24,406 nucleotides of DNA from IMG/VR virus record IMGVR_UViG_3300033153_012907. One strand, given 5' to 3'. Position 1 is the first letter of the stretch; every line of letters begins with the position of its first letter. Below, in pieces: positions 2,626 through 24,406 of this stretch. The notes beneath the pieces were generated by a model. That model had not been told where the DNA came from, searched no databases, and saw nothing but the letters and a program-made list of their open reading frames with translations. The stretch comes from a virus. Both the position numbers and the translations under genes were made by a program.

Positions 2626-2730
2626 ATGATAGAAAAAAAACTTTACTTTAAATTATTAGATTGTTTGTGTGCAATACTCCTGTATATAGCTTTTGTTGGA
2701 GTTTGCATATCTATTATGTTAAAATGTTAA
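2626..2730 (+). CDS. small membrane peptide, 34 aa
   Basis: MIEKKLYFKLLDCLCAILLYIAFVGVCISIMLKC. It overlaps the track's TTG-start extension of the ATPase, which supports the ATPase starting at 2724. Confidence 0.45.
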   Translation: MIEKKLYFKLLDCLCAILLYIAFVGVCISIMLKC

Positions 2731-9170: not shown

Positions 9171-9185
9171 AGGGGAGGATATCTT
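9140..9185. repeat. palindromic repeat copy 1 (IS200/IS605-end-like)
   Basis: AAAGGAGGTTCGCAATTCCTCCCAA (9140-9164) is identical to 9807-9831. TCCTCCC (9156-9162) pairs with GGGAGGA (9173-9179). Confidence 0.75.
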
Positions 9186-9192
9186 AAAGAAA

Positions 9193-9837
9193 ATGGCAAA
9201 GAAACAAAAAACATTAACAGGAACTTCATTAGTTGGAGATTCAGTGAACAGGGAAAGAGTTAAAGAAGATTATTATGCAACCCCAAAAGAAGCAACAGAA
9301 TCATTATTAAATACCCTTGATTTATCAGAGTGCGAATCTTTTTATGAACCTGCTTGTGGTGAAGGGCATATCTCAAAAGTATTAAAAAAGTTTTATCCCA
9401 ATGCAGATATTTATTCAACAGATTTAATTGATAGAGGATTTGGTGTTGGAAATATTGATTTTTTAAAATTAGATAATTATACAAGAAAGTTTGATTGTAT
9501 AATTACAAATCCTCCATTTAAGTTATCGCAAGAGTTTATAGAGAAAGGATTAAAACTTTCAAATAAGTATGTGATTATGTTTGCTAAAATACAACTTTTA
9601 GAAGGAGTAGCAAGGAGAAAACTATTTGATAAATATACTCCAAAATATATTTATGTTTTTACAGAGAGAGTTAATCCTTTAAGAAATGGAAGTCCTGTTG
9701 ATGAGAATGGAAAAAAGTGGGCTTCTACTATGTGCTTTGCTTGGTTTGTATGGGAGATTGGATTTTCAGGGGAACCAATTATTAGATGGTTAAACTTAAC
9801 TAAACTAAAGGAGGTTCGCAATTCCTCCCAAGCTTAA
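9193..9837 (+). CDS. orphan DNA N6-adenine methyltransferase (phage NPPF family)
   Basis: DYYATP; FYEPACGEGHIS; IITNPPF; LLEGVARRKLF; CFAWFVWE. The C-terminus KEVRNSSQA* is supplied by a repeat. Confidence 0.9.
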   Translation: MAKKQKTLTGTSLVGDSVNRERVKEDYYATPKEATESLLNTLDLSECESFYEPACGEGHISKVLKKFYPNADIYSTDLIDRGFGVGNIDFLKLDNYTRKFDCIITNPPFKLSQEFIEKGLKLSNKYVIMFAKIQLLEGVARRKLFDKYTPKYIYVFTERVNPLRNGSPVDENGKKWASTMCFAWFVWEIGFSGEPIIRWLNLTKLKEVRNSSQA

Positions 9838-9853: not shown

Positions 9854-9993
9854 TATTACATTTATATGAAAAAACTAATCCAGTTAATTTAAAATGAAAA
9901 ATCTACAAAAAAATAATGGTAAAAAGAAATCAGATAACAAATTGGACAAAAAATTAAATTTCGGGAGGTTAACTTCCGAGCGAGGACACAGAA

Positions 9994-10194
9994 ATGAATG
10001 CTGTAATACTTAGAGAACTCTGGTCAAGGTCAGGGTCATTATCAGGGTCAGGGTCATGGTCAGGGTCATGGTCATGGTCATGGTCAGGGTCATGGTCATT
10101 GTCAGGGTCAGGGTCATTATCAGGGTCAGGGTCATGGTCAGGGTCATGGTCATGGTCAAGGTCATGGTCAAGGTCAAGGTCAAGGTCATGGTAA
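9994..10194 (+). CDS. (Ser-X)n peptide copy 1, [10 protein letters not shown] leader, X = W/G/R/L
   Basis: ATG with GAGG upstream; non-repetitive 10-aa leader identical to copy 3; all Ser encoded by TCA. Confidence 0.6.
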
Positions 10195-10221
10195 AATTTA
10201 ATTAAATTTCGGGAGGTTAAA

Positions 10222-10446
10222 ATGAAGAAGGATTTAAACAAATTAAGTTTTCAAGAACTTAAAAAACAAATAGAAGAACTTGATAAAAAGAAAGAATCAG
10301 TTGGTAAAATTCAGGTTAAAGAAAGTCCTTTAGTAATCGGAGAAAATTACTTGATAAGAACTGTAACTATGATTTACACTGGGAAATTAGTAAGAGTGTT
10401 TGATAAAGAACTTGTATTTGTAAGTGCTTCTTGGATTCCAGCTTAG
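10222..10446 (+). pseudogene. 3'-truncated Sm/Hfq-like (SH3-type barrel) protein
   Basis: Strong [43 protein letters not shown] follows the Sm1 pattern (G..V.I.......Y.GKL..fD..LV...A). It breaks at 10441, where it joins the repeat-peptide leader and stops at once. Confidence 0.6.
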
Positions 10447-10627
10447 AGAACTCTGGTCAAGGTCAAGGTCATGGTCATGGTCATGGTCAAGGTCATGGTC
10501 AGGGTCATTGTCAAGGTCATGGTCAGGGTCATGGTCATGGTCAGGGTCATGGTCAGGGTCAGGGTCATTGTCAAGGTCATGGTCAGGGTCATGGTCATGG
10601 TCAGGGTCAGGGTCAAGGTCATGGTAA
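10424..10627 (+). CDS. (Ser-X)n peptide copy 2, ATG leader lost, in-frame GTG upstream
   Basis: LRELW plus 28 Ser-X pairs; could only start at the GTG at 10424. Confidence 0.35.
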
Positions 10628-10674
10628 AATTTAATTAAATTTCGGGAGGTTAACTTCCGAGCGAGGACACAGAA

Positions 10675-10863
10675 ATGAATGCTGTAATACTTAGAGAACT
10701 CTGGTTAAGGTCAGGGTCATGGTCATGGTCAAGGTCATGGTCAGGGTCATTGTCATGGTCATGGTCAGGGTCATGGTCATGGTCAGGGTCATGGTCAGGG
10801 TCAAGGTCAGGGTCAAGGTCATGGTCAGGGTCATGGTCATGGTCAGGGTCAGGGTCATGGTAA
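10675..10863 (+). CDS. (Ser-X)n peptide copy 3
   Basis: Same leader and upstream sequence as copy 1; 26 units in a different order. Confidence 0.6.
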
Positions 10864-11057
10864 ATTATTTTCACCATAAATTTGAAAAATGATACCAAAA
10901 AGATGTAAGAGATGTAACAAGCTTGTGCATTAAAAGTTTATTATGAAAATCAGAGAAAAGAACGACAAAAAAAATCAAAACCTAACACAACAAAATCAAT
11001 TAATGTGTGATGAAGAGATAGAAGAGATGGAAAATTTAGTAAAAAAAAGTTTGGAAA

Positions 11058-12150: not shown

Positions 12151-12285
12151 ATGCCCTCACAAACAATTTATATTAAAAAAGAATTCTGGGATAAAGTTAA
12201 GGAAAAACCAAGTGAAATAGTCAATAAAGCATTAAAGTTTTATTTTAAAAGTTTGAAAGGAGGTAAAAATGAAAAGAAGAAATAA
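12151..12285 (+). CDS. RHH-like microprotein, 44 aa
   Basis: MPSQTIYIKKEFWDKVKEKPSEIVNKALKFYFK: beta-strand then helix, with the SEIVNKAL second helix. Confidence 0.7.
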   Translation: MPSQTIYIKKEFWDKVKEKPSEIVNKALKFYFKSLKGGKNEKKK

Positions 12286-13018
12286 AAAATTGCTATCTGG
12301 GATGGTTTTACCACTTATTGTTGCTGTGGTTTTAGTAAGTGCTTTTGTTTTAGTATCTTATGGTTTTGTTGAACAAGAAATTGAAGTAAAAACTCCAATT
12401 GAAGTTAGTCAAGAATCAGAAGACACAATAACTACTTGGCTTGGAGAAGAAACACAAGTTAAAGGAAGTCCAATAACAATAGATAATGTAGTTCCTTTAG
12501 AAGATGATTTTAGTAAAGATATTGAAGTTAGAATAAGTAATGACAATGAAGAAGAAGGAATTTCTGTTGTTTATTTAGCAAAATTAGAATTGTATTCTAA
12601 AAATACTGAAACTTGGGAAGAAGTTGGAGACCCAAAAGAAATCCTTTATACAGTAATAGGAGAAGAATTTATCGTAGAAAATGATAATGAAGGATTAATG
12701 GTAATAAATTATATTGAACCATCAGACCCATACACTGGTGCATTTAGGTTACCAGAAGATATCACAACAAGTTTTGTTGATGAAAAACTTTGGTTGGTTC
12801 CAGAAGATTCTGATTTAGATGATGATAATGCATTAGATAGTTGGACACCTGCAGAATACAAGTTTGAACATGAGTTAGTCAGTTATACAAAAGGAGACAC
12901 AGGAGTAATCATAATTCCTGAAGGTTCATCAATTACAATAATTCCATTATATATTGTTGAAGTTGAAGAAGCAATTGAAGATTTAACTATAACCACAACA
13001 GTTAACAATATAGAATAA
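12269..13018 (+). CDS. secreted/anchored acidic beta-rich protein, possibly TasA/SipW-cognate-like
   Basis: SD GGAGGT; basic-then-hydrophobic signal. KLWLVP..SD.......W.P.EY.FE..LVSY recalls TasA-like proteins of archaea/CPR (from memory, unverified). Confidence 0.6.
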   Translation: MKRRNKKLLSGMVLPLIVAVVLVSAFVLVSYGFVEQEIEVKTPIEVSQESEDTITTWLGEETQVKGSPITIDNVVPLEDDFSKDIEVRISNDNEEEGISVVYLAKLELYSKNTETWEEVGDPKEILYTVIGEEFIVENDNEGLMVINYIEPSDPYTGAFRLPEDITTSFVDEKLWLVPEDSDLDDDNALDSWTPAEYKFEHELVSYTKGDTGVIIIPEGSSITIIPLYIVEVEEAIEDLTITTTVNNIE

Positions 13019-13032
13019 ACCAAATATCTTAA

Positions 13033-13053
13033 TTTTTTTTATTTTTTTTATTT
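13033..13053 (+). terminator. archaeal oligo-T terminator
   Basis: T8-A-T8 tract starting 15 nt after the stop at 13018. Confidence 0.6.
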
Positions 13054-13088
13054 AGAGAAAAAAAAGGAAATTATATTAAATATAAGAA

Positions 13089-13631
13089 ATGGATAAAATT
13101 AAGATAGGATTAATATTTGGATATATTGGAATTTTAGTTTTACTTAATTCTATTTTTGCAGAAACAATTTATGCTGGAAAATGTAATTCAATAGAGTTCC
13201 CAAATACAGACCCTGTGAAGTTTTTTGTAGAAGGAAATTCAAGTAATATGGAGGGGTTTACATTTAATAAAATAGGAACAAATATAACTTATTGTTTCCA
13301 TATATTGTATAAACCGGATAATTTCACAATAACTTTCTACAATTATCAATCTGTAACTACAAATGGAGGCTCTTCATTAAGTGGGGGAGGTATTTGTAGA
13401 TATAATAAAAATTTTAACTGGAATTGTTCTGAATGGGGTGGGTGTTCTAATGGAACAAAAGTGAGAATTTGTAAGGCTTATAATAACTGCCACACTACTT
13501 ATGGAAAACCAAACGAGACATTAAATTGTTCAGTTGTTCAGAACACCACAGAACCAATTATTTTAGTGCCTGAAGAAAAGTTAAGTTTATTTAGAAGAAT
13601 AATTAACTTCTTAAAAAGATATTTTAGATAG
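13089..13631 (+). CDS. surface glycoprotein with thrombospondin-like Cys-rich module
   Basis: Signal peptide. WNCSEWGGCSNGTKVRICKAYNNC...KPNETLNC is a TSP1-like motif of the kind common in DPANN surface proteins. Eight N-x-S/T sequons. Confidence 0.75.
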   Translation: MDKIKIGLIFGYIGILVLLNSIFAETIYAGKCNSIEFPNTDPVKFFVEGNSSNMEGFTFNKIGTNITYCFHILYKPDNFTITFYNYQSVTTNGGSSLSGGGICRYNKNFNWNCSEWGGCSNGTKVRICKAYNNCHTTYGKPNETLNCSVVQNTTEPIILVPEEKLSLFRRIINFLKRYFR

Positions 13632-13644
13632 AAACCTTTATAAA
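13631..13644 (+). promoter_or_regulatory. archaeal BRE+TATA promoter, leaderless
   Basis: GAAACC-TTTATAAA; the TATA box ends 23 nt before the ATG at 13668. Confidence 0.75.
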
Positions 13645-13667
13645 CTATATTCTATATAATATAGTAA

Positions 13668-13970
13668 ATGGTAATAACAACTTTAATAGGAAGGACAGAG
13701 TGGATAGAAAAAAATAAAAATAATTTGTTTGATGCCCTTACCCCTTCTATTAAATACCTCCTTCTAGTTTTAAATAAGAATAAGAATTTTAACAATTTAA
13801 ATAAGAAAGCTCGTATTTTAAAAATTTCTTATTCTTTTCTTAATAGTCAAATGAGATTATTAGTGGATTTAGGATTAGTAATAAAAGAGATAAGGGGGAG
13901 GACTAGCTATTACATGGTAACAAAAAAAGGAGAAAATTTTTGTGAGGAAATTTTTCATAAACTAAAGTAA
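13668..13970 (+). CDS. archaeal winged-helix regulator (MarR/ArsR-like)
   Basis: ISYSFLNSQMRLLVDLGLVIKEIRGRTSYYMVTKKG: recognition helix, wing and the Y..T.KG motif. Confidence 0.8.
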   Translation: MVITTLIGRTEWIEKNKNNLFDALTPSIKYLLLVLNKNKNFNNLNKKARILKISYSFLNSQMRLLVDLGLVIKEIRGRTSYYMVTKKGENFCEEIFHKLK

Positions 13971-13973
13971 CAC

Positions 13974-14007
13974 ATTCCCAACCGACTAAAAAGTCGGGGG
14001 CTTTTTG
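13974..14007. repeat. palindromic element (third IS200/IS605-end-like hairpin, or terminator)
   Basis: ATTCCCAA-CCGACT-AAAA-AGTCGG-GGGCTTTTTG, directly after a stop codon. Confidence 0.5.
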
Positions 14008-14116
14008 GAGTTGAGTGAGGGTTAAGGAGAGAGTATGAGTATGATATTTATAATTGTCCTGAAGAACTTAAAGGACAATTAACAATCGGAGATTTTTCAA
14101 ATGATTAAAAAAAGAA

Positions 14117-14299
14117 ATGAAAAAATTAGAACCTTATGTTGAATATCATGGGCAAATCCCAACATTATTCGGAGGTAATGATGAAAAGTTTTTTGAATAT
14201 ACCGAAAATAGAACTAAAATCAAAACATTAAAGGAAGTTTTGAAGTTATTAAAAACTGATAAAACTAAAGAAGATATTATTAAGGAGATTAAAGGATAA
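14117..14299 (+). CDS. hypothetical protein
   Basis: ORF track; coupled to the next gene. Confidence 0.55.
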   Translation: MKKLEPYVEYHGQIPTLFGGNDEKFFEYTENRTKIKTLKEVLKLLKTDKTKEDIIKEIKG

Positions 14300-14300
14300 A

Positions 14301-14528
14301 ATGAAACTAAAAATTTATGGTACACATGGGATATTCTCTTACATCTTAACAGCAATAACATCTTGGATGTTTGGAATTTTTATTATAATTAGAAATCCAA
14401 ATATTTTTGGTGTAATCATCTTTATTTCCTTTATTTTAGCTGGAATATATTTTGGGTCAGTGGCTGGAAAACCTTACAATCGTATAATTACTTGTGAAAA
14501 ATATGAGGTAATTAAGAATGAAATGTAA
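14301..14528 (+). CDS. two-TM membrane protein
   Basis: Two hydrophobic helices. Confidence 0.65.
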   Translation: MKLKIYGTHGIFSYILTAITSWMFGIFIIIRNPNIFGVIIFISFILAGIYFGSVAGKPYNRIITCEKYEVIKNEM

Positions 14529-14618
14529 AACTTGTAAGGAGGAAATATTAGGAAATCCAAAATTTATTTTGGAACAAATGACAATGATAGGATATGAAAA
14601 TGGATTCCTTATTGACTT

Positions 14619-14807
14619 ATGAAAAGAAATTTTCAAAGAGGATGTCAGCATAAAAGACTGAAAAAATGGTATCCTTATGGAAAAAAATCAAAACCAGTTA
14701 TAAAGTGCAAAGATTGTAATTCGCTTATAACCTTGCTTCAATTAAGAAAATTAAGAAAATCAAAAGAAGAGAGAATGAGGAAAAATGGAAGAAAAAGAAA
14801 AATTTAA
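14619..14807 (+). CDS. basic zinc-finger-like protein
   Basis: CQH...CKDC; Lys/Arg-rich. Confidence 0.6.
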   Translation: MKRNFQRGCQHKRLKKWYPYGKKSKPVIKCKDCNSLITLLQLRKLRKSKEERMRKNGRKRKI

Positions 14808-15093
14808 ATTAAAGGTATACCTAAAATATCTTATACTAAGCCCTTGGAAAGAGTCTGTCTCAATTCCTAATTTTAGCACTATAACTTGGGTATTAATAAT
14901 AATTTCTTTACTTTTAAAATCAAAAGCTCTTTTATTTGTTTCTGTTTGTTTAGGTGTTATTTTTTATCTAATTAAAGAATACAAAAGCGGAATAGCTATG
15001 CACTGGTATAGAATGAGAAGTTATAAAGAACAGAAGGAAGCCTTAAAAAAAGTGAGGGCACAAAGAAAAAATGGACATAAAATTAATAATTAA
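14785..15093 (+). CDS. two-TM membrane protein
   Basis: Hydrophobic hairpin WVLIIISLLL...LLFVSVCLGVIFYLI; basic tail. Confidence 0.7.
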   Translation: MEEKEKFKLKVYLKYLILSPWKESVSIPNFSTITWVLIIISLLLKSKALLFVSVCLGVIFYLIKEYKSGIAMHWYRMRSYKEQKEALKKVRAQRKNGHKINN

Positions 15094-15310
15094 TATAGGA
15101 GTAGTTTTATTTTGTTCCTATCTTGTCGCTACAAACTATGAATATAAAACAATTCTTTTATTAGTAATCATACTCAGTTCGTTTTATCTTGGTAGAAGAT
15201 ATTTTGGACTGAATAAGGAAAGGCAAAAGAGAGAGGCTCACTCGCCTCCCTCTTTACCATCCAATCTTCCTGAAGAATTTAGATTAGAGCAACAGAGAAT
15301 GCCAATATAA
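15071..15310 (+). CDS. two-TM membrane protein with Pro-rich tail
   Basis: Two hydrophobic helices; SPPSLPSNLP. Confidence 0.7.
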   Translation: MDIKLIINIGVVLFCSYLVATNYEYKTILLLVIILSSFYLGRRYFGLNKERQKREAHSPPSLPSNLPEEFRLEQQRMPI

Positions 15311-15444
15311 AATGGGAAGAAAAAGAAAATTAATGACAAAAAGGGAAATAAATAAAGAACTTAAAGAAAAACAGAAAGCTTTAAAAAAGGTAAATGCTAT
15401 GATAATTCAAGAAATGATTGACGGCATTAACAGGAGATTACAAC

Positions 15445-15771
15445 ATGTATACTTTAAGCAAAGAACAAGTTAACACTATTAAAAAACTTTTGAACGAACG
15501 AAAAAGTTTTCAAATAAAAACAATTCTAAAGGATTTAGAAGTTTATCAAAATCCTATAATAAATAAATTAGAAAGATTTTTAAGGAACAAAGGAAAATCC
15601 ACAATTCTTCATTCTGAAATAAGAGAAATTATAAGGGAGGTTAAAATGGAAGAAGAAAATCAAGAAATGGAAAAAGAAGAACTTGAAGAAGAACAAAAAA
15701 CTGGCGAAGAAGAAAGTTCTGAGGACGAATCTGAAGAAGAAGAAAAAGAAGAAAATCAAGAGGAAGAATGA
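15445..15771 (+). CDS. protein with long Glu-rich C-terminal tail
   Basis: About 40-aa poly-Glu tail; start moved to the ATG at 15445. Confidence 0.65.
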   Translation: MYTLSKEQVNTIKKLLNERKSFQIKTILKDLEVYQNPIINKLERFLRNKGKSTILHSEIREIIREVKMEEENQEMEKEELEEEQKTGEEESSEDESEEEEKEENQEEE

Positions 15772-16145
15772 AATTTTTAATTTTTTTATTTATTTTTCTT
15801 TGTCTTCCTTTAGTAATAGCGGGAAGTGTACCACAGGCTTCTGTTGAATATTACTTAAATCAAACTGAGTTACCAATTTGCGAAGATGAACTAGAAACCT
15901 GTGTTAATGAATATAATAATCTCTTAGAAGATTTTAAAGACGGAAATAATTGTAAGGGGCTTTCTCAGATGTTAAAAAGTATGAATGAATTACTTGGAGA
16001 AGAAAGAGATGAATGTTTAAAAGAGATAGGCGCTCTTGAAGTATATAAGATAGGTTTTTTTAGTATGGGTGCTTTTTTGTTAATTACCGCGCTCTTTTTA
16101 ATTTACTCATCATTTAAAGATGGAAAAAGAAATACCAAAAAATAA
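15768..16145 (+). CDS. signal peptide, Cys-containing coiled coil and C-terminal TM
   Basis: MKFLIFLFIFLCLPLVIA signal; CEDELETC (Cx6C); TM IGFFSMGAFLLITALFLIY. Confidence 0.75.
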   Translation: MKFLIFLFIFLCLPLVIAGSVPQASVEYYLNQTELPICEDELETCVNEYNNLLEDFKDGNNCKGLSQMLKSMNELLGEERDECLKEIGALEVYKIGFFSMGAFLLITALFLIYSSFKDGKRNTKK

Positions 16146-16416
16146 AGTGTATGTAGGAAAAAAACCATTCCTAAATTATGTTACAGCAGTAAATACTCTA
16201 TTTCAAAAAGGATTTAAAGAAATTATAATTTGTGCAAGAGGAACATTTATCCATAAAGCAGTTGACGTCGCAGAAGTTATTAAAAATAATTTTTCAAAAG
16301 ATGAAGTATTATTAGATGTAAAGACAGGAACAGAATCTTTTAAAGAAAAAGACAAAATAATAAAAGTATCAACAATCGATTTAAAACTAACAAAACACAA
16401 AACAATAAGTTTATAA
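16120..16416 (+). CDS. albA: Alba-family DNA/RNA-binding chromatin protein
   Basis: KVYVGKKPFLNYVTAV...EIIICARGTFIHKAVDVAEVIK...VSTIDLKL matches Alba consensus along its full length. Confidence 0.93.
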   Translation: MEKEIPKNKVYVGKKPFLNYVTAVNTLFQKGFKEIIICARGTFIHKAVDVAEVIKNNFSKDEVLLDVKTGTESFKEKDKIIKVSTIDLKLTKHKTISL

Positions 16417-16449
16417 ACACTTTTTTGTTATTTATACTGAAACTAAATA

Positions 16450-16929
16450 TTGCCTTTCCTAAAATGCCCCATGAAAACAACCATAGTCTCAGAATTACTC
16501 TCCCAAAATAAAATAAAATTTCTAGATGAAAATAACTTACATTTTAGGATTTGTTACCCTTCTAAATTTAAATATGTAAACCAATTTCAACCACCTTTTC
16601 TTATCATAGATACTTTTGCTAAAAAAACAACAAGGCAAAAGGACATTGTAAGGATAAGTCTAAATGATTTAAAAAGAAAAGAGTTGGTATTGACTAGCGT
16701 AAAAGCAACAAAATCTACTAGATGGATTAGTTATCAAAAAAGGATTTATAGGATTGAACCCTTATTTTCTATATCCCCTAACTCAAAGAAACTTCTTACA
16801 GCTCCAGAAGGTCATAAAATCGAGTTTGACAGGGCAAACCAAGCAGTTAGATTAATCGGTAAATATGCAGGATATCCTCATAGGGGAAATGGAGGAAATT
16901 GGGTTCCAATTAAAAATGATAACGCCTGA
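16450..16929 (+). CDS. hypothetical basic protein upstream of the ATPase
   Basis: ORF track; the likely start is the ATG at 16471. Confidence 0.6.
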   Translation: MPFLKCPMKTTIVSELLSQNKIKFLDENNLHFRICYPSKFKYVNQFQPPFLIIDTFAKKTTRQKDIVRISLNDLKRKELVLTSVKATKSTRWISYQKRIYRIEPLFSISPNSKKLLTAPEGHKIEFDRANQAVRLIGKYAGYPHRGNGGNWVPIKNDNA

Positions 16930-19288
16930 AGAATTAAAATGCAGATTATGGGGAATGGGTTTTGCAAATCCAAGAACTAGATACAAGGAGAAAATGATAG
17001 AAGATATTCCAATAATGATAACAGATTCTGGAAAATTATTGTGTGTTCCAAATACAGAGGAAATAAAACATGTCGGAATTGTGGGGATGACTGGTTGTCA
17101 GCCTGCCGGAAGCAAGGTTTTAATGGCAGATGGTTCTTGGAAAAATATAGAAAAAATAAAGAAGGGGGATTTGGTAATTTCCCCCCAGAAGGAGGGGGGT
17201 AATATTTTTGCTAAGGTCAAATCTACTACCAAATGGTTCTCAAATGAAAATTATGAGATAAAAGAACAAAATAGAAACAAGAGAAGTCTATATAGGTGCT
17301 CCCATAATCATATAATCCCTTTTTATTTTAGGTCTAAAAAAAGTTCAAAAGATGCCTCATGGAAAATAAGACAGGAAACAGCATCACATTTCAATAAATA
17401 TGATGAATTAGCAAACTCTAGGATTGGTTTTTCTTCTTTTTTAATAGAAAAATTTAAAGGAAGAAAAAATTGTGAGATTGAAGCTTATACTTTAGGGGTT
17501 TTTTTAGGGGATGGATGTTCTATTTATAAGGAATATAAAAGACAAAAATATAAGGCACTTTCAATAACTTCTATGAATGAAGAAATTATAGATGAGGTAT
17601 CTAAATTTTATCCAATAATGAGTATAAGGAACAAAGAAAAGAGTAAGGCAAAACAGTATAATTTTTCAGTTAAGGGAGAACTTCAGAAACAAATAGAAAA
17701 ATATGGTCTTAAAGGGAAAAAAAGTGGAGATAAATTTATCCCAAAAGAAGCATTATTATCAGATTCAGAATATAGAAAAAAACTTCTTGCAGGATTAATA
17801 GATACAGATGGCACCATTAAAGATGGAACAAGTTATAACTTAGTTACAATATCTAAGAGTTTGGCAGAAGACATAAAATTTTTGATTTATTCTCTTGGTG
17901 GCAGATGTTCAATTAAAAAATATAAATCAAGTATAAAATCATCAAATTTTATTGGTGAACGTTATATTATAAGTTTTTATTTGCATAAATTAGAACTACC
18001 ATTAAAATTAAAATATAAAATAAGAAATAAAAAATTTTCTTATTTATCTTCTAATAGATTAGCGATTTCTGTAAAAAAATCAGAACCTGGGATGGTTTAT
18101 GGATTCCAAATAAACAGCCCCTCTAAATGGTATGTAACAGATAATTGGATGGCAACCCACAACTCCTGTAAGAGCATTTTTCTTAACGCTTTTCTTTCTT
18201 GGGACTATTGGCTTGCAAAAAGGAAATGTCTTGTTTTAAATGATTTTCAAAAAGAAACTTTTGAATGGAGCCTACCAACAGATACTCCAAGTTTTTTTTA
18301 TTCTTTAAAAAAAATAAACGCAAAACCTTGTCCAACACCTCTTGTTTATATCTTTCCTACAACGAAATCTCTCCAAATAGAACCATCTGATAAGAGATTT
18401 CCTTTGATAAAGATGACACTCCCTCTCGAAGAAGTCATAAAGAATGTAGAAAACTATCATAAATTAGACAAGAGCAAGGTTTATCTTGCAAATATAAAAG
18501 AAAAACTAGAAGATTGTAATTCTATTCAGGAGATAAGAGAAGTTTTGGAAGAGGAATTTCCAGAAAGAGAACAAAAGTTAATGAGGTTTAAGTTAATGAA
18601 TATTTTTGAAGATTTATTTGAAAACCATATTTTAAATGTAGCAGTTCCAAACGCCCCTTCTTATTTGGAATACAAAAAAAAAGAGGTTAGATATTATAAT
18701 AAGGTAGTGCAAACAATATTAAGGGCAAACTTAATCCCCTCAATTCAAACCTCTGATTTGAGTAATTATGAATTTTTTTCTGCTTATATGTCTTATATTG
18801 TTAGTTCTTTATATGAAAATCAATATCATGATAGTTATTTTAAAACTCAAACAATATCATTATTTGTAGATGAAATAGATAAATTATGGCTTGGATTTAA
18901 TGGCAATTTAATAAAAAGAGCCCTTAGTTTAATTGGAACAAATGGTAGAATGGCAAGAATAGGATTAAGGTGGGCAACACAACATTATAAAGTTGTTCCT
19001 GTTGGAATAAGGAGTAACACCAAATTCTTGGTTGTTTCAAGACAAAAAGATTCAAAGGAGGTATCAGAGATAAGAAAAGATTTTGATATCCCAAAATGGA
19101 TGGAAAAAGATATTTTAAATTTAAAGTCAGAACCAGAAAAAGGAATTTTTGAAGTTATTGCAGTAACTACAGAAAGATTTATATTATATGATTTAACAAC
19201 AGGAGAAAAAAAATTAAGTTCAGAAGCACAAAAAGGAGAACTGGTATGTCCAATTGCGCGACATCATAGACCAAACACTAAACTATAA
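16916..19288 (+). CDS. FtsK/HerA-superfamily (VirB4/packaging-like) ATPase with intein
   Basis: After splicing, Walker A reads HVGIVGMTG|SCKS. Walker B ISLFVDE. GRMARIGLRWATQ and IRSN motifs are characteristic of FtsK-HerA. Start moved to the AAAATG at 16916; spliced product about 434 aa. Confidence 0.85.
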   Translation: MITPEELKCRLWGMGFANPRTRYKEKMIEDIPIMITDSGKLLCVPNTEEIKHVGIVGMTGCQPAGSKVLMADGSWKNIEKIKKGDLVISPQKEGGNIFAKVKSTTKWFSNENYEIKEQNRNKRSLYRCSHNHIIPFYFRSKKSSKDASWKIRQETASHFNKYDELANSRIGFSSFLIEKFKGRKNCEIEAYTLGVFLGDGCSIYKEYKRQKYKALSITSMNEEIIDEVSKFYPIMSIRNKEKSKAKQYNFSVKGELQKQIEKYGLKGKKSGDKFIPKEALLSDSEYRKKLLAGLIDTDGTIKDGTSYNLVTISKSLAEDIKFLIYSLGGRCSIKKYKSSIKSSNFIGERYIISFYLHKLELPLKLKYKIRNKKFSYLSSNRLAISVKKSEPGMVYGFQINSPSKWYVTDNWMATHNSCKSIFLNAFLSWDYWLAKRKCLVLNDFQKETFEWSLPTDTPSFFYSLKKINAKPCPTPLVYIFPTTKSLQIEPSDKRFPLIKMTLPLEEVIKNVENYHKLDKSKVYLANIKEKLEDCNSIQEIREVLEEEFPEREQKLMRFKLMNIFEDLFENHILNVAVPNAPSYLEYKKKEVRYYNKVVQTILRANLIPSIQTSDLSNYEFFSAYMSYIVSSLYENQYHDSYFKTQTISLFVDEIDKLWLGFNGNLIKRALSLIGTNGRMARIGLRWATQHYKVVPVGIRSNTKFLVVSRQKDSKEVSEIRKDFDIPKWMEKDILNLKSEPEKGIFEVIAVTTERFILYDLTTGEKKLSSEAQKGELVCPIARHHRPNTKL
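17096..18163 (+). mobile_element. intein with LAGLIDADG homing endonuclease, 356 aa
   Basis: Block A CQPAGSKVLMADGSWKNIEKIKKGD; block B SHNHII; LAGLIDADG motifs LGVFLGDG and LAGLIDTDG; block G THN followed by Ser+1. Confidence 0.95.
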
Positions 19289-19733
19289 AATGATAATCAG
19301 CAACAAAGAACACAAAAATATAATAGCATTAGAAAAGCCAGAACACCAGATTATAGCAATAAAGGAATTTATCATAAATTTTAATAAAGAGGCTAAAAAA
19401 AGAAATTCCAAATGGTTTGCAGAATTATTGTTTAAACAATTCCCTCATATTACAAAAAGAAACGGGATAATAGATTTTTTTCTGTGTAGGATGGAACCTT
19501 CTTTTCAAGTTATAGATAGTGGAGGATATTTTTTCTTTGTAGATAATGATTATATCTGTAATTCAATAGGGAGAAAATTTAGTGATAGGTTTTTTAAACA
19601 TCTTCCAGAATTTAAACCAATATTAGAAGCAATCCCTCAAAAAGTCTATATATTATGGGATAATGAAAATTTAATGGGAAATATAGAAAACATAGAAAAA
19701 GAAATTTTAAAACTCAAAAATGGAAAAAAATAA
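19254..19733 (+). CDS. hypothetical protein
   Basis: ORF track; overlaps the ATPase end; the start may be the ATG at 19290. Confidence 0.6.
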   Translation: MRDIIDQTLNYKMIISNKEHKNIIALEKPEHQIIAIKEFIINFNKEAKKRNSKWFAELLFKQFPHITKRNGIIDFFLCRMEPSFQVIDSGGYFFFVDNDYICNSIGRKFSDRFFKHLPEFKPILEAIPQKVYILWDNENLMGNIENIEKEILKLKNGKK

Positions 19734-20022
19734 AACAATAGGATGGAAAGTAATAGCAATCTTATTTCTTTTGCTAGCATTTATCTTTTTTATGAAGGGA
19801 GAATACGACAAAAAACAACTTCATGAGGATTATTCAGATTGTATAACTAAAAAAAATGTGTGTACAAATGTTTTAAATGAAACTTTAAAAGGTTGGAAAG
19901 AATGTATTTTTGCAGTTGGATATTCTTTAAATATGACTACAGAAGAAATAGAATATGAATTAGATGTGGGAACAAATCCTTTTTATTTAAATAGTACAAA
20001 GGAGGTTCAAAATGAAGATTAG
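19720..20022 (+). CDS. type II membrane protein with Cys-helix motif
   Basis: N-terminal TM; YSDCITKKNVC-x9-GWKEC; sequons NET, NMT and NST. Confidence 0.75.
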   Translation: MEKNKTIGWKVIAILFLLLAFIFFMKGEYDKKQLHEDYSDCITKKNVCTNVLNETLKGWKECIFAVGYSLNMTTEEIEYELDVGTNPFYLNSTKEVQNED

Positions 20023-20620
20023 TTTAATTTTATTACTATTAATAAGTATTCCTTTAATAACAGCAGGATTAGATGAAGCTAGTTTGACTATTAGGGTTTC
20101 AAATAATTCAATAGAGATAATAGACAGCAAGTTTCCTAACATAAATAACCAGAATTTTACTTATTCAATAACAAACAAATCAATGTCTTTTACAAATACC
20201 ACATTTAATTTAATTTACGAGATTAATGAAACTGCCAGTGGTTTTGATTTTGCAGATGAATATACTAATTGTTTAACCAAAAAAACAGAATGTGAAATAT
20301 TAAAAAAAGATATTGATAGAGGGTGGACTGAGTGTTTGTCTAGTCTTAATAGATTTGAAGGACAAAATGCAACTGCTTGTGATGATTTATTAGATGATTG
20401 TGAATTAGATTTGGAAAGAAAAAAAGTAGATTTGGAAAGTAAAGCAAGGGAAATACAAGATTTATCTAATGACCAAGAAGATACAAGAAATACGAAATAC
20501 ATATATTTTGGTGCAGGGCTTTTGGTTGGAGTTCTTGGTTTATTATGGAAGCAAGGAAAAATAGGAAACAAACATCACGAAAAATCACAAGACGAATTAA
20601 ATAAACAAATAGCAGCTTAA
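20012..20620 (+). CDS. type I membrane glycoprotein with Cys-helix motif and coiled coil
   Basis: Signal peptide; six N-x-S/T sequons; YTNCLTKKTEC-x9-GWTEC; C-terminal TM YIYFGAGLLVGVLGLLW. Confidence 0.8.
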   Translation: MKISLILLLLISIPLITAGLDEASLTIRVSNNSIEIIDSKFPNINNQNFTYSITNKSMSFTNTTFNLIYEINETASGFDFADEYTNCLTKKTECEILKKDIDRGWTECLSSLNRFEGQNATACDDLLDDCELDLERKKVDLESKAREIQDLSNDQEDTRNTKYIYFGAGLLVGVLGLLWKQGKIGNKHHEKSQDELNKQIAA

Positions 20621-20621
20621 A

Positions 20622-21149
20622 ATGGTAGATAATCCAAGAGAAGAAATACTAATTCCTCCAGAATATTCTCTTTTAGAAACAGGAGATGGATATGTTAGCT
20701 TAGTTCAGGGAGCAATAGAAAAAGAAGACGAAGAAGGAAGACAAATAGTTGAATTTGTAATTAAGCCAACAAATGTATTAAGAAAAAGATATAATATACG
20801 AGAAGACCAACTTAAAGATGGAAAAATGATTTTTCAAGTATTAAAATCTGATTTGATTCCTTTAAATATACTTGATGATGCAAATAGAAAATGGCTTTAT
20901 GTAAAGTCTTTTGGACATGAAGAAACAGAATTAAGTAAAATACATTGGAAATTAAGAGAACAGCTTGAAGCAGAAAGAAGAAAAAGAGTTTATTTAGAAG
21001 GGGAATTAATATGGTATTCAGAACAATTAAAATTAGCAAGGACAAACCCACAAGAATTTATAGCACAAGGAATGGAGGTTTTTGAAAAAGTTGGAACCAG
21101 AATGGCAGACTTAATGAAAGGAAAACGAAGGGAGGATTTAGAAGAATGA
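20622..21149 (+). CDS. hypothetical protein, beta-rich N-terminus and coiled-coil C-terminus
   Basis: ORF track; TAAAATG coupling. Confidence 0.7.
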   Translation: MVDNPREEILIPPEYSLLETGDGYVSLVQGAIEKEDEEGRQIVEFVIKPTNVLRKRYNIREDQLKDGKMIFQVLKSDLIPLNILDDANRKWLYVKSFGHEETELSKIHWKLREQLEAERRKRVYLEGELIWYSEQLKLARTNPQEFIAQGMEVFEKVGTRMADLMKGKRREDLEE

Positions 21150-21634
21150 CAGAATTAGATGAAAAACAAGAAATAGAATTGGAATCTCTTTACTCAGGGA
21201 ATTTAGATTTAAAAACAACCACAGAAAACCCTATATTAACCCCAATTGCAGAAGCAAACAATACATTTACTAATCTTAGTCTTATAAGAAACAAAGCTCT
21301 TTTAGATTACGAAGAGATATATAGAAAAATTCAAGAAATGGTTGAAGAAAATCCAAGATATTCTGAAACAATGATTGTAACAACTATTTTTAATTTAATT
21401 ATCCAATTTAAACAAATTGTTCATTCACAAGACCTTCAAATAGAAACCATGAAAAAAACAATTCAAGAAATGATTAAAATTGTAAATTTAAGATATGATT
21501 TGCTAGGAGAAGAAGAAGAACCGATTGTAAAAGAAATAAAAAAAGAGAAGGTGGAAACCGATGAAGAGGTATTAAAAGAATTAAATAAAATAGCTAAACC
21601 TAAAGTTTCAAGTTTAACTGATAAACCAATATGA
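21146..21634 (+). CDS. coiled-coil hypothetical protein
   Basis: ORF track; ATGA overlaps at both ends. Confidence 0.7.
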   Translation: MTELDEKQEIELESLYSGNLDLKTTTENPILTPIAEANNTFTNLSLIRNKALLDYEEIYRKIQEMVEENPRYSETMIVTTIFNLIIQFKQIVHSQDLQIETMKKTIQEMIKIVNLRYDLLGEEEEPIVKEIKKEKVETDEEVLKELNKIAKPKVSSLTDKPI

Positions 21635-22026
21635 AAGGAGGCAAAATGAAAGACGAAGAATTTACTGAAGAAGGGGAGATTTATAAAGAAGCATTTGAAT
21701 CAAACGACGGAAGAAATGTAATCAAGATAGCAGGAAGAAGACCAGAAGTATATATAGAGACAATTTTGAAAAAACTTCAAAAATATGACCAGATAATAAT
21801 CTCTTGTTTAGATACTTATCTGGATATAGCAACTTATATAATTAGGTTATGGGAAGCAGTTGGAGTTTATCCTGAAAAGAATGAATATAATCCAAAACAA
21901 AAATTGTTTTTTATAAAAAAAATGGAAGAAATCTCTAACAGAGAAACTGGAAAAAAATATAAAAAACCTGTCAATATAATCACCCTAACCAAAGACCCCA
22001 ATATTTACAGATTTACTAAAATATGA
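21631..22026 (+). CDS. divergent Alba-like protein
   Basis: NVIKIAGRRPEVYIETILKKLQKYDQIIISCLDTYLDIATYII...VNIITLTK follows the Alba beta-alpha-beta-alpha order. SD GGAGG precedes the ATG at 21646. Confidence 0.5.
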   Translation: MKGGKMKDEEFTEEGEIYKEAFESNDGRNVIKIAGRRPEVYIETILKKLQKYDQIIISCLDTYLDIATYIIRLWEAVGVYPEKNEYNPKQKLFFIKKMEEISNRETGKKYKKPVNIITLTKDPNIYRFTKI

Positions 22027-22601
22027 CAAGTGGCGATGAATATTCTGAGTATAAAGACTGGCAAAAAAAACAAGGAAGTCTTTGGACTAGATTTTCCAAA
22101 CAAGTTAAATCAGTTCATTTGATTGGGTTCTTCGTTCTTATAATTGCGGGAAACTGGGCAACACAAACTGGAAAAATTCCTATGGCTGTATTTTTTACAG
22201 CAATAATTGCGTTTGCACTGGTTTTTCTTTTTGTTGCTGTTAGAGAATCTAATGAACCTAAATTAATTCCTGAACACATCATAAAACAAATTGGAAAAAA
22301 TGCTTTAGAAAAAAAAAGAGGTGAAGAAATCCCATTTGACGCAAAAATAAAAATTACCCTAATAGGAGAAGTAATCCATGAACAAGATATGATTTCAAGA
22401 ACCTCTGGTGTAATTAAAAGAGAAGTGGGTTTTCAACTTATCAAAAAAGGATATGCTAAATCTGGAGTAATTGGAATTCATCCTTATAATGGAATTGTTT
22501 TAGGAATAAGATGGGAAAGGCTTGGATATAGTGGAAAAGAAACAAAAGATAGAATTTTGGTCCCGGTTAATATTATAGACCAAGGTTTTAAAGGAAAATG
22601 A
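22023..22601 (+). CDS. two-TM membrane protein with soluble C-terminal domain
   Basis: Hydrophobic hairpin VHLIGFFVLIIAG...AVFFTAIIAFALVFLFVAV. Confidence 0.75.
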   Translation: MTSGDEYSEYKDWQKKQGSLWTRFSKQVKSVHLIGFFVLIIAGNWATQTGKIPMAVFFTAIIAFALVFLFVAVRESNEPKLIPEHIIKQIGKNALEKKRGEEIPFDAKIKITLIGEVIHEQDMISRTSGVIKREVGFQLIKKGYAKSGVIGIHPYNGIVLGIRWERLGYSGKETKDRILVPVNIIDQGFKGK

Positions 22602-22815
22602 TTTCAGAAAAAATAATAAAAGAAAACAATATCCCCATCCCTATGAATAAAGGAAAAAGGTTTTGGATGTATAAATATAAGGATGAGATAATTAGTTTAT
22701 ACACAAATAAAACTATGAATGAAATAAAAGATATAATGTAATCAGAATCTGGGAAAATGAAATAAAAAAAATGAATTTAAAAGATTTTAAAATTAAACTC
22801 CCAATAAGCTTTTAA
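22598..22815 (+). pseudogene. internally deleted DUF559/Vsr-like endonuclease remnant
   Basis: The 5' frame MISEKIIKENNIPI...YKDEIISLYTNKTMNEIKDIM* switches frame at GATATA (22730-22735) into YNVIRIWENEIKKMNLKDF, the typical G-Y-x-V-x-R-x-W-E C-terminus. Confidence 0.55.
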
Positions 22816-22979
22816 GAAATAAAACTATATCTTGAAACTATATCATAAAGATTTTCCAAATCTCTTTTTATCTTTTTTTTACAAGCGAAATCAAAATCTT
22901 GAATAATTCTTCCCAAATATTTTAAAAAAAGTGTTTCCACTTCTTCAAGGACAAACCCTTGTTCAGTATACTCTTGCAT
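22812..22979 (-). CDS. small hypothetical protein, 55 aa
   Basis: Start moved to the ATG at 22979, which lies 21 nt downstream of a TATA box. Confidence 0.55.
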   Translation of the reverse strand: MQEYTEQGFVLEEVETLFLKYLGRIIQDFDFACKKKIKRDLENLYDIVSRYSFIS

Positions 22980-23000
22980 AAAACTAAAAAATCTCATAGA

Positions 23001-23013
23001 TATTTAAATGTTA
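23001..23013 (-). promoter_or_regulatory. archaeal TATA promoter (AACA-TTTAAATA), leaderless
   Basis: Same core as at 7301, 11724 and 12116; 21-nt gap to the ATG at 22979. Confidence 0.65.
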
Positions 23014-23198
23014 TGTATACCTTTTTAAATAATTTTAAGATAATTCTATTTCCTTCCTTATTCTTAACCAAATACTCCTAAGGAACTAAGAAGAATATAT
23101 CCAACAATCAGTACACCAATTATCTTAATTAAATCAGTATATTTAAATCTTTCTCGATGTTTCTTATTCTACAACGAATTTAACTTTTATAAACGTTT

Positions 23199-23618
23199 CT
23201 AAATTCCAAATAAGACCCTGTATCTTGGTACAAGAGGAACATAACAAATTACATCTTTTTTATTAATAGGATAATCTAAAAATTCATTATTGTCTCCTTT
23301 TGTTATAAATTTATCCCCAAAAAAAACAATCCTATGAGAAATACCAAGCCCATTAGAAAAAAAGAAGATGATATCTCCAACAGAATAATTTTCTTTTTTT
23401 AAACAAATACATTCTGAATTATTTTTTATTGCAGGAATCATAGAAATCCCACTAACTTTTAATAAAGTAATCTCCTGCATTTTTGTATTCAAAATTTCTT
23501 GCTTAGAATAGACTGCTTCTTCTGGATTTATTTTTTCAATAGAAGGTCTGCAATAAGGGACAGGAGAAATTAAGTAAACAAAAAAAACAACAATTAAAAG
23601 AACTTTCCATGCTTTCAT
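23199..23618 (-). CDS. S26 signal peptidase I, archaeal/ER/SipW type
   Basis: N-terminal TM; catalytic Ser box VSGISMIPAI; GDII; His box ISHRIV; box E ITKGDNN...D. Confidence 0.88.
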   Translation of the reverse strand: MKAWKVLLIVVFFVYLISPVPYCRPSIEKINPEEAVYSKQEILNTKMQEITLLKVSGISMIPAIKNNSECICLKKENYSVGDIIFFFSNGLGISHRIVFFGDKFITKGDNNEFLDYPINKKDVICYVPLVPRYRVLFGI

Positions 23619-23755
23619 TTTTTCTTTCTTTTCTCTAGTTCTTTTATAAAGTTGGAAATTTCTTTTTTACAATTTGGACAATATTCCCCATTAAAATAAT
23701 AATAATCAACATCATCAAATTTTTTTCCACAAACATTACATATCTTAATTAGCAT
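23615..23755 (-). CDS. zinc-finger microprotein, 46 aa
   Basis: MLIKICNVCGKKF...EYCPNCKKEI; ATGA overlap with the peptidase gene. Confidence 0.7.
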   Translation of the reverse strand: MLIKICNVCGKKFDDVDYYYFNGEYCPNCKKEISNFIKELEKRKKK

Positions 23756-23776
23756 TACAAATTAAAGAATTTAATC

Positions 23777-23790
23777 TTTATAAATCCTTT
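23777..23790 (-). promoter_or_regulatory. archaeal BRE+TATA promoter, leaderless
   Basis: AAAGGA-TTTATAAA on the minus strand; 21-nt gap to the ATG at 23755. Confidence 0.7.
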
Positions 23791-24026
23791 CATAAGTACA
23801 TTGTTGCATAAGAGGGTCTTTTTGAAAGTAAAAAAATTAAATTGACTATGGCAGGATTCCTAAAGAAAAAGAGCCAAGATATTAGTATTATCCCAGAAGA
23901 TTTTAAGGAAGAAGAAATAACTGAAGGAGTATTGATTGGACAAAAAGACAATGCATTTCATAATTCATAAGTTCTCTGTTAACTTAAAGGTTGGTAAATG
24001 AGCCAAACTAAGAAGAATTAGACTCT

Positions 24027-24152
24027 ATGCCAGAAGAAAAAATTAAAAGCTGGTTTATTGAGCCATTATTTGAAGCATAGGTTGGGATGTATTGTTACCT
24101 TAATTGGTCTTAATTCTTGTTTTAGTTATTAATCTAATATTGAAAATCTAGT
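24027..24152 (+). pseudogene. decayed small membrane-protein gene with two in-frame stops
   Basis: One frame reads MPEEKIKSWFIEPLF*SIGWDVLLP*LVLILVLVINLILKI*. Confidence 0.35.
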
Positions 24153-24155
24153 TTC

Positions 24156-24169
24156 GAAAGATTTAAATA
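24156..24169 (+). promoter_or_regulatory. archaeal BRE+TATA promoter, leaderless
   Basis: GAAAGA-TTTAAATA; 21-nt gap to the ATG at 24191. Confidence 0.75.
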
Positions 24170-24190
24170 GATGAAATCTTACTTAATCTT

Positions 24191-24406
24191 ATGGTATTCA
24201 ATCCACCAATCGTAAAAAAAGGAAAATTAGTGACCTCAGGGTCATCAGTAGTGGTAACTATTCCTAAAGAGTGGCTTGAAGAACACCAATTAAAAGCAGG
24301 AGATGACATAATGATTATCTCAAATGGAGAGTTAAGGGTGTTAAAAATGGATGAAGAAAATATAACAAAAATCAGAAATCAATTATCACAATCAGATAAA
24401 CTCAAT
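24191..24406 (+). CDS. AbrB/MazE/SpoVT-family DNA-binding protein, 3' partial
   Basis: Hand-translated KLVTSGSSVVVTIPKEWLEEHQLKAGDDIMI matches the swapped-hairpin motif. It runs off the window end, so it is absent from the ORF track. Confidence 0.85.
   Translation, partial: MVFNPPIVKKGKLVTSGSSVVVTIPKEWLEEHQLKAGDDIMIISNGELRVLKMDEENITKIRNQLSQSDKLN

Follow-up and report, generated by a model that had tools for sequence, protein, structure and literature searches.

A conserved gene module pairing a HerA/VirB4-like ATPase with membrane and Alba proteins on a putative virus-like element of Woesearchaeota-type DPANN archaea

RESULTS

The gene run and its conservation

We analyzed a stretch of DNA recorded as viral (IMG/VR record IMGVR_UViG_3300033153_012907), hereafter called the window (24.4 kb in full, about 26% G+C, nearly all genes on the + strand), and focused on a run of genes encoding an ATPase of the FtsK/HerA type, membrane proteins, and Alba proteins. 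The original prediction, made from the letters alone, had described positions 14785 to 22601 as a tightly coupled, co-directional run. Indeed, 16 successive open reading frames (ORFs; named by their first position) lie between 14619 and 22601, all on the + strand, and each of their 15 junctions is an overlap of 4 to 65 nucleotides (nt) or a gap of at most 33 nt. A Kyte-Doolittle scan found hydrophobic segments in all six ORFs named as membrane proteins (14785, 15071, 15768, 19720, 20012, and 22023), and the protein said to carry an acidic tail is ORF 15418. The features of the run are listed below, with lengths in amino acids (aa) and the basis of each assignment in parentheses (HMM, hidden Markov model). 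Locus counts refer to the window plus seven related loci, eight in all.

14785..15093, + strand: small membrane protein, 102 aa, two hydrophobic segments within residues 24 to 66 (hydropathy; homologs in 5 loci; family HMM E 2e-38)
15071..15310, + strand: membrane protein, 79 aa, hydrophobic segment at the N terminus (hydropathy; no homolog at the clustering threshold)
15418..15771, + strand: 117-aa protein with a Glu-rich acidic tail, isoelectric point 4.6 (homologs in 3 loci)
15768..16145, + strand: 125-aa protein with signal-like N terminus, Cys motif, and C-terminal transmembrane anchor; paralog of 20012 (hydropathy; 20012-family HMM E 1.2e-4; 4 loci)
16120..16416, + strand: canonical Alba DNA/RNA-binding protein, 98 aa (Pfam PF01918 E 1.7e-16, 60.2 bits, cutoff 25)
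16450..16929, + strand: 159-aa basic protein, detached N-terminal domain (subunit) of the ATPase as judged by synteny, profile match, and complex model
16865..19288, + strand: 807-aa precursor of a predicted P-loop ATPase of the HerA/VirB4 clade (alignment; fold of an intein-free homolog)
17096..18163, + strand: 356-aa intein with LAGLIDADG homing endonuclease (Pfam Hint, Hom_end_hint, Hom_end, LAGLIDADG_3)
19254..19733, + strand: lineage-specific 159-aa ORF between the ATPase and 19720 (ORF call)
19720..20022, + strand: 100-aa N-anchored membrane protein with Cys motif (hydropathy; homologs in 3 loci)
20012..20620, + strand: 202-aa core protein with signal peptide-like N terminus, Cys motifs, and C-terminal transmembrane anchor, type-I topology (7 loci; HMM E 2e-47)
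20622..21149, + strand: 175-aa soluble core protein (7 loci; HMM E 5e-73)
21146..21634, + strand: 162-aa acidic soluble core protein (7 loci; HMM E 1e-44)
21631..22026, + strand: 131-aa probable divergent Alba-fold core protein (7 loci; three weak profile matches)
22023..22601, + strand: 192-aa core membrane protein with short N-terminal tail, one or two transmembrane helices at about residues 30 to 77, and C-terminal domain of about 110 aa (7 loci; alignment; hydropathy)

The synteny search suggested at the outset recovered a core, 16450-ATPase-20012-20622-21146-21631-22023, in 7 to 8 of the 8 loci, on contigs of 20 to 75 kb that carry almost no Pfam-annotated genes. Since these loci are independent, the gene run reflects more than chance. 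Around this core, ORFs 14785 and 15768, the Alba gene 16120, and a peptidase gene at 23199 are each found in 3 to 5 loci. The C-terminal anchor of ORF 20012 is also seen in its homologs. ORF 20622 is 47 to 59% identical to the three relatives compared; its N-terminal half appears beta rich and its C-terminal half helical, as judged by eye from the sequence and not computed, and it matched no family in the profile libraries scanned. Neither Pfam nor PHROGs gave a family match for ORF 14785, and ORF 19254 had no homolog in the seven related loci and no Pfam or PHROG family. PDB profile searches with the 22023 and 16450 families returned only chance-level matches.

Of 185,579 species genomes, only 2 contained close relatives of the ATPase; both are DPANN-type metagenome-assembled genomes (MAGs), and one is labeled Woesearchaeota. 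A sensitive six-frame search detected the ATPase in 3 of 401 genomes of that phylum. The module is therefore not a host operon, the conserved chromosomal alternative named in the original prediction. The tblastn search of PLSDB with the ATPase was empty, and in the literature on DPANN viruses and HerA/VirB4-type archaeal elements we found no description of this element family.

A P-loop ATPase interrupted by an intein

The 807-aa ATPase precursor consists of an N-extein (16865 to 17095) and a C-extein (18164 to 19288) separated by an intein, and the true start is likely 16889 or 16916. The intein boundaries were set by alignment to intein-free homologs, which close the gap exactly, and place it at ATPase residues 78 to 433, within the Walker A loop (GMTG/C...THN/SCKS, slashes marking the junctions). 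Its motifs are intact, comprising Cys1 (C78), an SHNH block-B-like motif, the terminal His-Asn (THN433), and S434 at +1; together with two LAGLIDADG motifs (GVFLGDG and LAGLIDTDG), these are the features of a class 1 intein. Searching with the C-extein, we recovered 86 homolog clusters, most of them 434 to 450 aa long, without intein and without Pfam domain. Inteins at the same P-loop site recur in 7 of the 86 near-length clusters and in many longer representatives.

The P-loop of the family reads G-x-T-G-[TSK]-[CSG]-K-[STG], and splicing would give the loop GMTGSCKS in the window (17075 to 17095 joined to 18164 to 18175). The Walker A motif deviates in two complementary ways, as GxTG[ST]CK[ST] in one clade and as GxTGKGKG, with Gly for Ser/Thr, in its sister clade. 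The Walker B Glu (LFVDEIDK) and a GTNGR..G..W.TQ arginine-finger/sensor block are invariant across 45 sequences, and both line up with the corresponding motifs of TdpA and HerA.

Sequence profiles gave only marginal matches to TdpA, HerA, and FtsK, and NCBIfam gave only faint HerA signals. The fold of an intein-free homolog was predicted with confidence by AlphaFold (AF2; predicted local distance difference test score [pLDDT] 85, predicted template modeling score 0.84). Compared by VIA-align, this model matched HerA of Saccharolobus solfataricus (4d2i) with a Z score of 25.9 and a root mean square deviation of 3.1 Å over 310 residues, at about 14% identity and with the alignment starting only at HerA residue 117. 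The Z scores were 20 to 25 for defense-associated HerA proteins, 22.8 for VirB4 (4ag6), 19.7 for TrwK of R388, 18.1 for TrwB, and 16.1 for FtsK; the packaging NTPase B204 of STIV2 was aligned end to end with a Z score of 16.3. The top Foldseek matches were TdpA and defense-associated HerA proteins. Among viral models, the best match was a nameless 429-aa protein in BFVD (A0A5Q2W8D8; TM-scores 0.61/0.64), for which we found no paper mentioning it, and A32-like enzymes reached TM-scores of only 0.2 to 0.3.

By its modeled fold, the ATPase is a member of the FtsK/HerA superfamily, with the large HerA/VirB4 architecture rather than the compact A32/P9 type. This upholds the superfamily assigned in the original prediction, which had missed the intein and the contribution of ORF 16450; of the two kinds of enzyme it had considered, the VirB4-type agrees with the Z scores for HerA and VirB4, and the A32/P9-like type does not agree with that for B204. 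Nevertheless, one fused relative of the ATPase exceeds the Pfam Pox_A32 cutoff (24.1 versus 22.8 bits), and the C-terminal half of the ATPase itself matches phrog_2666 ("head and packaging") with an E value of 1.5e-9. This is the sole "terminase" label that we encountered, and it falls on the HerA-like ATPase. A link to the pleolipovirus NTPase was also considered and rejected, HRPV-1 VP8 aligning with the family profile over 9 columns only.

ORF 16450 as the detached N-terminal domain of the ATPase

ORF 16450 lies directly upstream of the ATPase gene in 8 of 8 loci. An exhaustive profile search extended the ATPase clade to 398 representatives, many of which are about 600 aa long with an N-terminal extension of about 170 to 190 aa, and many of which bear inteins. 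When a profile of 27 such extensions from fused relatives of about 600 aa was compared by hhalign with the 16450 family, the two matched over 126 columns with a probability of 99.7% and an E value of 2.4e-26. Judged from these profiles, ORF 16450 is the detached N-terminal domain of the ATPase. It has no PDB sequence match of its own.

Binding between the two proteins is supported by a predicted complex of a cognate 16450-ATPase pair, which scored 0.86 while the best of three controls scored 0.00. In a benchmark, 58 of 80 solved complexes scored this high, as did 2 of 110 mismatched pairs, counts that are only approximate here, custom alignments having been used. The runs shared at least 39% of contacts, and the partner had a pLDDT of at least 67. 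The halves of a split gene may, however, pass such a test through their likeness to solved HerA structures.

One canonical and one probable Alba protein

Two Alba-type proteins had been proposed in the run. For ORF 16120 this holds, its Pfam score lying well over the cutoff, and the gene is kept beside the module in three further loci (L001, L003, and L006). ORF 21631 falls under the Pfam Alba threshold, and three weak matches point the same way: its family HMM matches ORF 16120 over the full length (E 0.0027), hhalign aligns the family with the element's own Alba family (E 1.5e-4), and its best PDB sequence match is the Alba protein 1nh9 (residues 2 to 83 of 87, E 0.035). It is thus counted as a probable Alba protein only. 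In a related locus (L005:12305-12964), the 21631 homolog is a tandem duplication of the Alba-like domain (219 aa). There is a precedent for DPANN viruses with Alba (10.1101/2025.02.15.638363).

A second conserved block beyond the window

With the window's own peptidase, we found a 44.9-kb JGI/NCBI contig that is 99.5 to 100% identical to window positions 13224 to 24406 and continues past the 3' end. It ends within a GC-rich repeat near window position 10,477; taking the window and this contig together, the element is at least about 55 kb long. Window positions 9934 to 10876 hold a 74-aa ORF flanked by GC-rich tandem repeats with units of 6/12/18 nt, in three arrays (41% G+C versus 26% for the genome). 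The repeat region breaks assemblies, since the JGI contig, an independent assembly of this element, stops inside it (at about window 10477).

On the 44.9-kb contig, a second conserved block begins 1.5 kb past the window's 3' end. It is present in 6 to 7 of 7 relatives. The encoded proteins measure about 320, 236, 260, and 170 aa, with one more of 500 to 860 aa, and all are membrane or surface proteins, namely, a pilin-like Ig-domain protein, polytopic proteins, and type-I proteins with many N-glycosylation sequons.

The protein of about 320 aa (L021:6789-7739, - strand, about 1.5 to 2.4 kb past the window's 3' end; homologs in L001 to L007) has an N terminus of the "KKG/KKA plus hydrophobic helix" type and, with few exceptions, Tyr-Cys as its last two residues. 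The model of this protein (pLDDT 84) contains a CnaB/transthyretin-like domain and an Ig-like domain and is closest to Gram-positive shaft pilins (Foldseek E 2e-7 to BcpA); of the 48,161 representative chains compared, no capsid protein was among the matches listed. It is followed by a protein of about 230 aa with five predicted transmembrane segments (six to seven in homologs), one member of whose family (in L016) gives a weak Rce1/CPBP-protease match. The two proteins may form a C-terminal processing or lipidation pair.

Flanking genes and the rest of the element

Two further features lie downstream of the run.

22592..22812, + strand: remains of a free-standing homing endonuclease gene that has undergone an internal deletion, in two pieces out of frame with each other (family HMM)
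23199..23618, - strand: 139-aa S24/S26-clan peptidase with N-terminal transmembrane segment (Pfam Peptidase_S24, 28 bits, cutoff 23.3)

Positions 22592 to 22738 of the remnants correspond to profile positions 32 to 79 of the family HMM and positions 22723 to 22812 to profile positions 313 to 337. An intact member of this family has helix-turn-helix and DUF559/Vsr-like nuclease domains. We ruled out that the remnants are a decayed structural gene, the family being one of free-standing homing endonucleases. The peptidase, probably a signal peptidase, accompanies the module, and its homologs adjoin the module in L003 and L006. Between it and the second block lies an AbrB/MazE-type SpoVT domain gene (24191 to 24406, Pfam E 4.5e-9), cut by the end of the window.

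In the upstream half of the window (2 to 760, 2661 to 3842, 4307 to 4963, and 8649 to 9837), one gene product is Ku-like, another is an AAA ATPase, and three are probable DNA methyltransferases (4307, 9193, and 8649, the last by its DPPY motif only); this half looks like a replication and anti-restriction module. PHROG matches in the window were to Ku-like (E 6e-08), DNA methyltransferase (E 4.5e-60), and AAA ATPase (E 5e-35, phrog_1250) families. Upstream of the module (12269 to 13631) are two secreted or anchored proteins without homologs in the related loci, one acidic (249 aa) with an N-terminal anchor and the other Cys-rich (180 aa) with many N-glycosylation sequons.

The 63.9-kb contig of a relative, from a Woesearchaeota MAG, has no tRNA and a uniform G+C content, and carries MCM, several homing endonuclease, and TnpB genes as well as giant ORFans. 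One of these, of 1608 aa (L010:11644-16467, on G002:C7), matches phage tail-fiber PHROGs (E 1.6e-26 and 7e-22); its 1295-aa neighbor has no matches at all.

DISCUSSION

The preferred reading

With moderate confidence, we read the region as a conserved module for particle morphogenesis and DNA translocation. It would belong to large virus-like elements with double-stranded DNA (about 45 to 75 kb or more) that form a hitherto undescribed family in Woesearchaeota-type DPANN archaea. The motor would be a two-subunit ATPase of the HerA/VirB4 clade, made up of the 16450 N-terminal domain and the 16865 catalytic core after the P-loop intein has spliced out. This ATPase would form a ring at the membrane. 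Once compacted by the two Alba-fold proteins that the element encodes, the DNA would be pumped by this ring into a particle bounded by a membrane. The small membrane proteins encoded alongside would make up this particle, and its surface would display the pilin-like Ig-domain protein, the type-I glycoproteins, and the polytopic proteins of the second block, all of them processed by the signal peptidase that the element carries. As for a protein capsid, either there would be none or current profiles would fail to recognize it.

Several traits are virus-like. The element carries an intein, free-standing homing endonucleases are many, and relatives have MCM or D5 replication genes; its Ku-like protein, methyltransferase, and AAA ATPase fall in PHROG families, and the relatives contribute the tail-fiber-like 1608-aa protein and the fused ATPase that passes Pox_A32. 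The original prediction had offered an undescribed DPANN virus family or a transfer system, and of this the mobile element of DPANN archaea (here of Woesearchaeota type) stands. Its picture of DNA coated with Alba and moved into or through a membrane is still an inference.

A number of observations weigh against this interpretation. Neither a particle nor a spacer match nor a terminus was observed. Capsid, portal, and terminase genes were sought with Pfam and PHROGs among the window ORFs scanned, across the next 9.2 kb, and among 20 large ORFs from the 63.9-kb relative, and none was found. This agrees with the claim that the module holds no recognizable capsid or terminase, and it also speaks against an ordinary tailed virus with HK97 capsid, portal, and terminase. 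The sole folded capsid candidate, the protein of about 320 aa, is a pilin-like Ig/CnaB stack and not a jelly roll. The ATPase is nearer to cellular, defense, and conjugation enzymes than to known packaging NTPases such as B204, and its Walker A motif is non-canonical relative to GxxxxGK[ST], the Gly that precedes Lys being replaced by Cys, so that ATPase activity is a prediction only. Neither a pattern scan of IMG/VR nor a tblastn search of deposited phage and archaeal-virus genomes (INPHARED) with the ATPase found a relative. Finally, in a related locus with a fused ATPase (L016:8676-15131), the module adjoins S_layer_C, S8 subtilase, and glycosyltransferase genes, possibly host DNA; these genes are either host DNA next to an integrated element or a structural cluster like that of the plasmid-vesicle elements discussed below.

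A more far-reaching version of the same reading is a deep unseen lineage of DPANN viruses with a capsid-less virion, in which Alba-chromatinized DNA, a two-subunit HerA-like motor, and a lipid envelope bearing glycoproteins and pilin-like fibers are combined. We put this forward only tentatively, as possible rather than probable.

Alternative explanations

The element could instead be a plasmid-vesicle element like pR1SE (apHPV), in which the ATPase would recruit DNA to, or load it into, vesicles that bud off with membrane proteins of the element on their surface. Such apHPVs have two syntenic clusters of structural proteins, no capsid, an S8 peptidase, and an S-layer-like protein, and the ATPase that they encode as ORF25 resembles VirB4, TrwB, HerA, and the STIV2 NTPase in structure (PMC10818511). 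Our element likewise has two conserved membrane-rich blocks and an ATPase with the same structural neighbors as ORF25, and the L016 module is flanked by an S8 peptidase and an S_layer_C protein. At the level of sequence the picture is mixed: the ATPase was co-linear with the ORF25 homolog of H. turkmenica over 284 columns in a single-sequence alignment (E 0.038), whereas hhalign against a six-sequence ORF25 profile gave only an E value of 0.01 with a probability of 4% over 112 columns. Moreover, apHPVs are reported from Halobacteria only, PLSDB contained no match, and the load of homing endonucleases and the tail-fiber-like giant protein look more viral. We regard this explanation as unlikely.

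A second alternative is a conjugation-type or Ced/Ted-type transfer system on a plasmid or integrative element, in which a VirB4-like ATPase energizes a membrane channel and pilus between cells. The Ced/Ted systems combine a VirB4/HerA-like ATPase with a channel of six to seven transmembrane segments and small pilins with two, and TedC is cut by signal peptidase I (PMC9905601). VirB4 is indeed among the top structural matches of our ATPase, 14785 and 14301 are small proteins with two transmembrane segments, the 230-aa protein of the second block has a comparable number of segments in homologs, and the element encodes a pilin-like secreted protein and a signal peptidase. However, the core block has no polytopic channel protein, most loci have no VirD4 coupling protein or second transfer ATPase, and the ATPase, at 450 aa, is without the large N-terminal domain of VirB4. 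The two Alba genes and the soluble coiled-coil-like core proteins are foreign to known type IV secretion systems, and again there was nothing in PLSDB. Transfer of this type is, in our judgment, quite unlikely.

Less likely still is a tailless icosahedral virus with an internal membrane, as in the PRD1/STIV/sphaerolipovirus-like viruses, whose jelly-roll capsid would be among the proteins without a structure model and whose ATPase would be the packaging enzyme at a vertex with small membrane proteins. This is the known context of packaging ATPases of the FtsK/HerA type, and the small membrane proteins beside the ATPase resemble the vertex arrangement of PRD1. B204 aligned over its whole length, a relative passes Pox_A32, and the C-terminal half of the ATPase falls on phrog_2666. 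Yet the only core protein with the length of a double jelly roll is the Ig/CnaB-like one of about 320 aa, the architecture of the ATPase is the large HerA/VirB4 one and not the compact one of 200 to 250 aa, and the soluble core proteins 20622 and 21146 appear half helical by eye.

HerA-based anti-phage defense, or another cellular function carried as cargo, is highly improbable even though the closest solved structures include SIR2-HerA, DUF4297-HerA, and TdpAB complexes, since the ATPase, far from being variable cargo, is a core gene throughout the element family and keeps a fixed order relative to the membrane and Alba protein genes, and since its partner 16450 is its own N-terminal domain rather than an effector; general family scans, which did not include the PADLOC library, also gave no nuclease or NADase partner.

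Significance and comparison with known systems

Taken for what it most resembles, the element is of a known kind, a mobile element around a DNA pump of the FtsK/HerA superfamily, with a real chance of being something more distinct. Much of archaeal diversity lies within the DPANN archaea, and the module defines a family of at least 86 protein clusters at 90% identity; for the ATPase clade in its wider sense, the number of representatives is 398. Markers with which such elements can be found are the split ATPase, the 16450 N-terminal domain, the Alba-like core protein, and the pilin-like protein, and the split or fused N-terminal domain and the deviant, intein-targeted P-loop offer testable enzymology. 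If capsid-less particles are indeed packaged by a HerA-like motor, they would form a bridge between viral packaging, plasmids carried in vesicles, and DNA transfer of the conjugation type, and a capsid-less virion of Alba, HerA motor, and envelope would be a particle architecture and packaging route undescribed for any virus.

In overall logic, the closest analog is the pR1SE-like apHPVs, which are also capsid-less, with two membrane/surface clusters (likened here by description) and a VirB4/HerA/B204-like ATPase. They differ in that the similarity of the ATPases is at the superfamily level only (E 0.01), the host belongs to another phylum, and no sequence match was found in PLSDB.

HerA and our ATPase have in common a RecA-like core that carries a helical insertion, as well as the arginine-finger/TQ sensor block. 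Here, however, the N-terminal domain, which in HerA proper is a HAS beta-barrel, is on a separate gene, the Walker A motif is deviant, the P-loop holds an intein, and the neighbors are membrane proteins on a mobile element. In addition, the HerA partners NurA, Mre11, and Rad50 were found neither in Pfam scans of the larger window and flank ORFs nor among the Pfam matches listed for the related loci.

VirB4, CedB, and TedB form the second-best structural class, and small proteins with two transmembrane segments and a signal peptidase are near the ATPase here as well. Those enzymes are 600 to 800 aa long compared with 450 aa here, no VirB6/CedA channel or VirB2 pilin homolog is demonstrated in our element, and its Alba and soluble core proteins have no counterpart in type IV secretion.

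The A32, P9, and B204 NTPases belong to the same superfamily, as illustrated by the B204 alignment and by the one fused relative that passes Pox_A32, but they are compact (about 200 to 250 aa) and encoded beside jelly-roll capsid genes, whereas the ATPase here is larger and no jelly-roll capsid gene was recognized next to it.

Finally, the protein of about 320 aa shares its N-terminal KKG/KKA plus hydrophobic helix and its CnaB/transthyretin-like and Ig-like domains with shaft pilins (BcpA, SpaA, and SpaD) and archaeal type IV pilin-like proteins. It is set apart from the shaft pilins by TM-scores of about 0.3, the lack of a sortase motif, and its conserved Tyr-Cys end.

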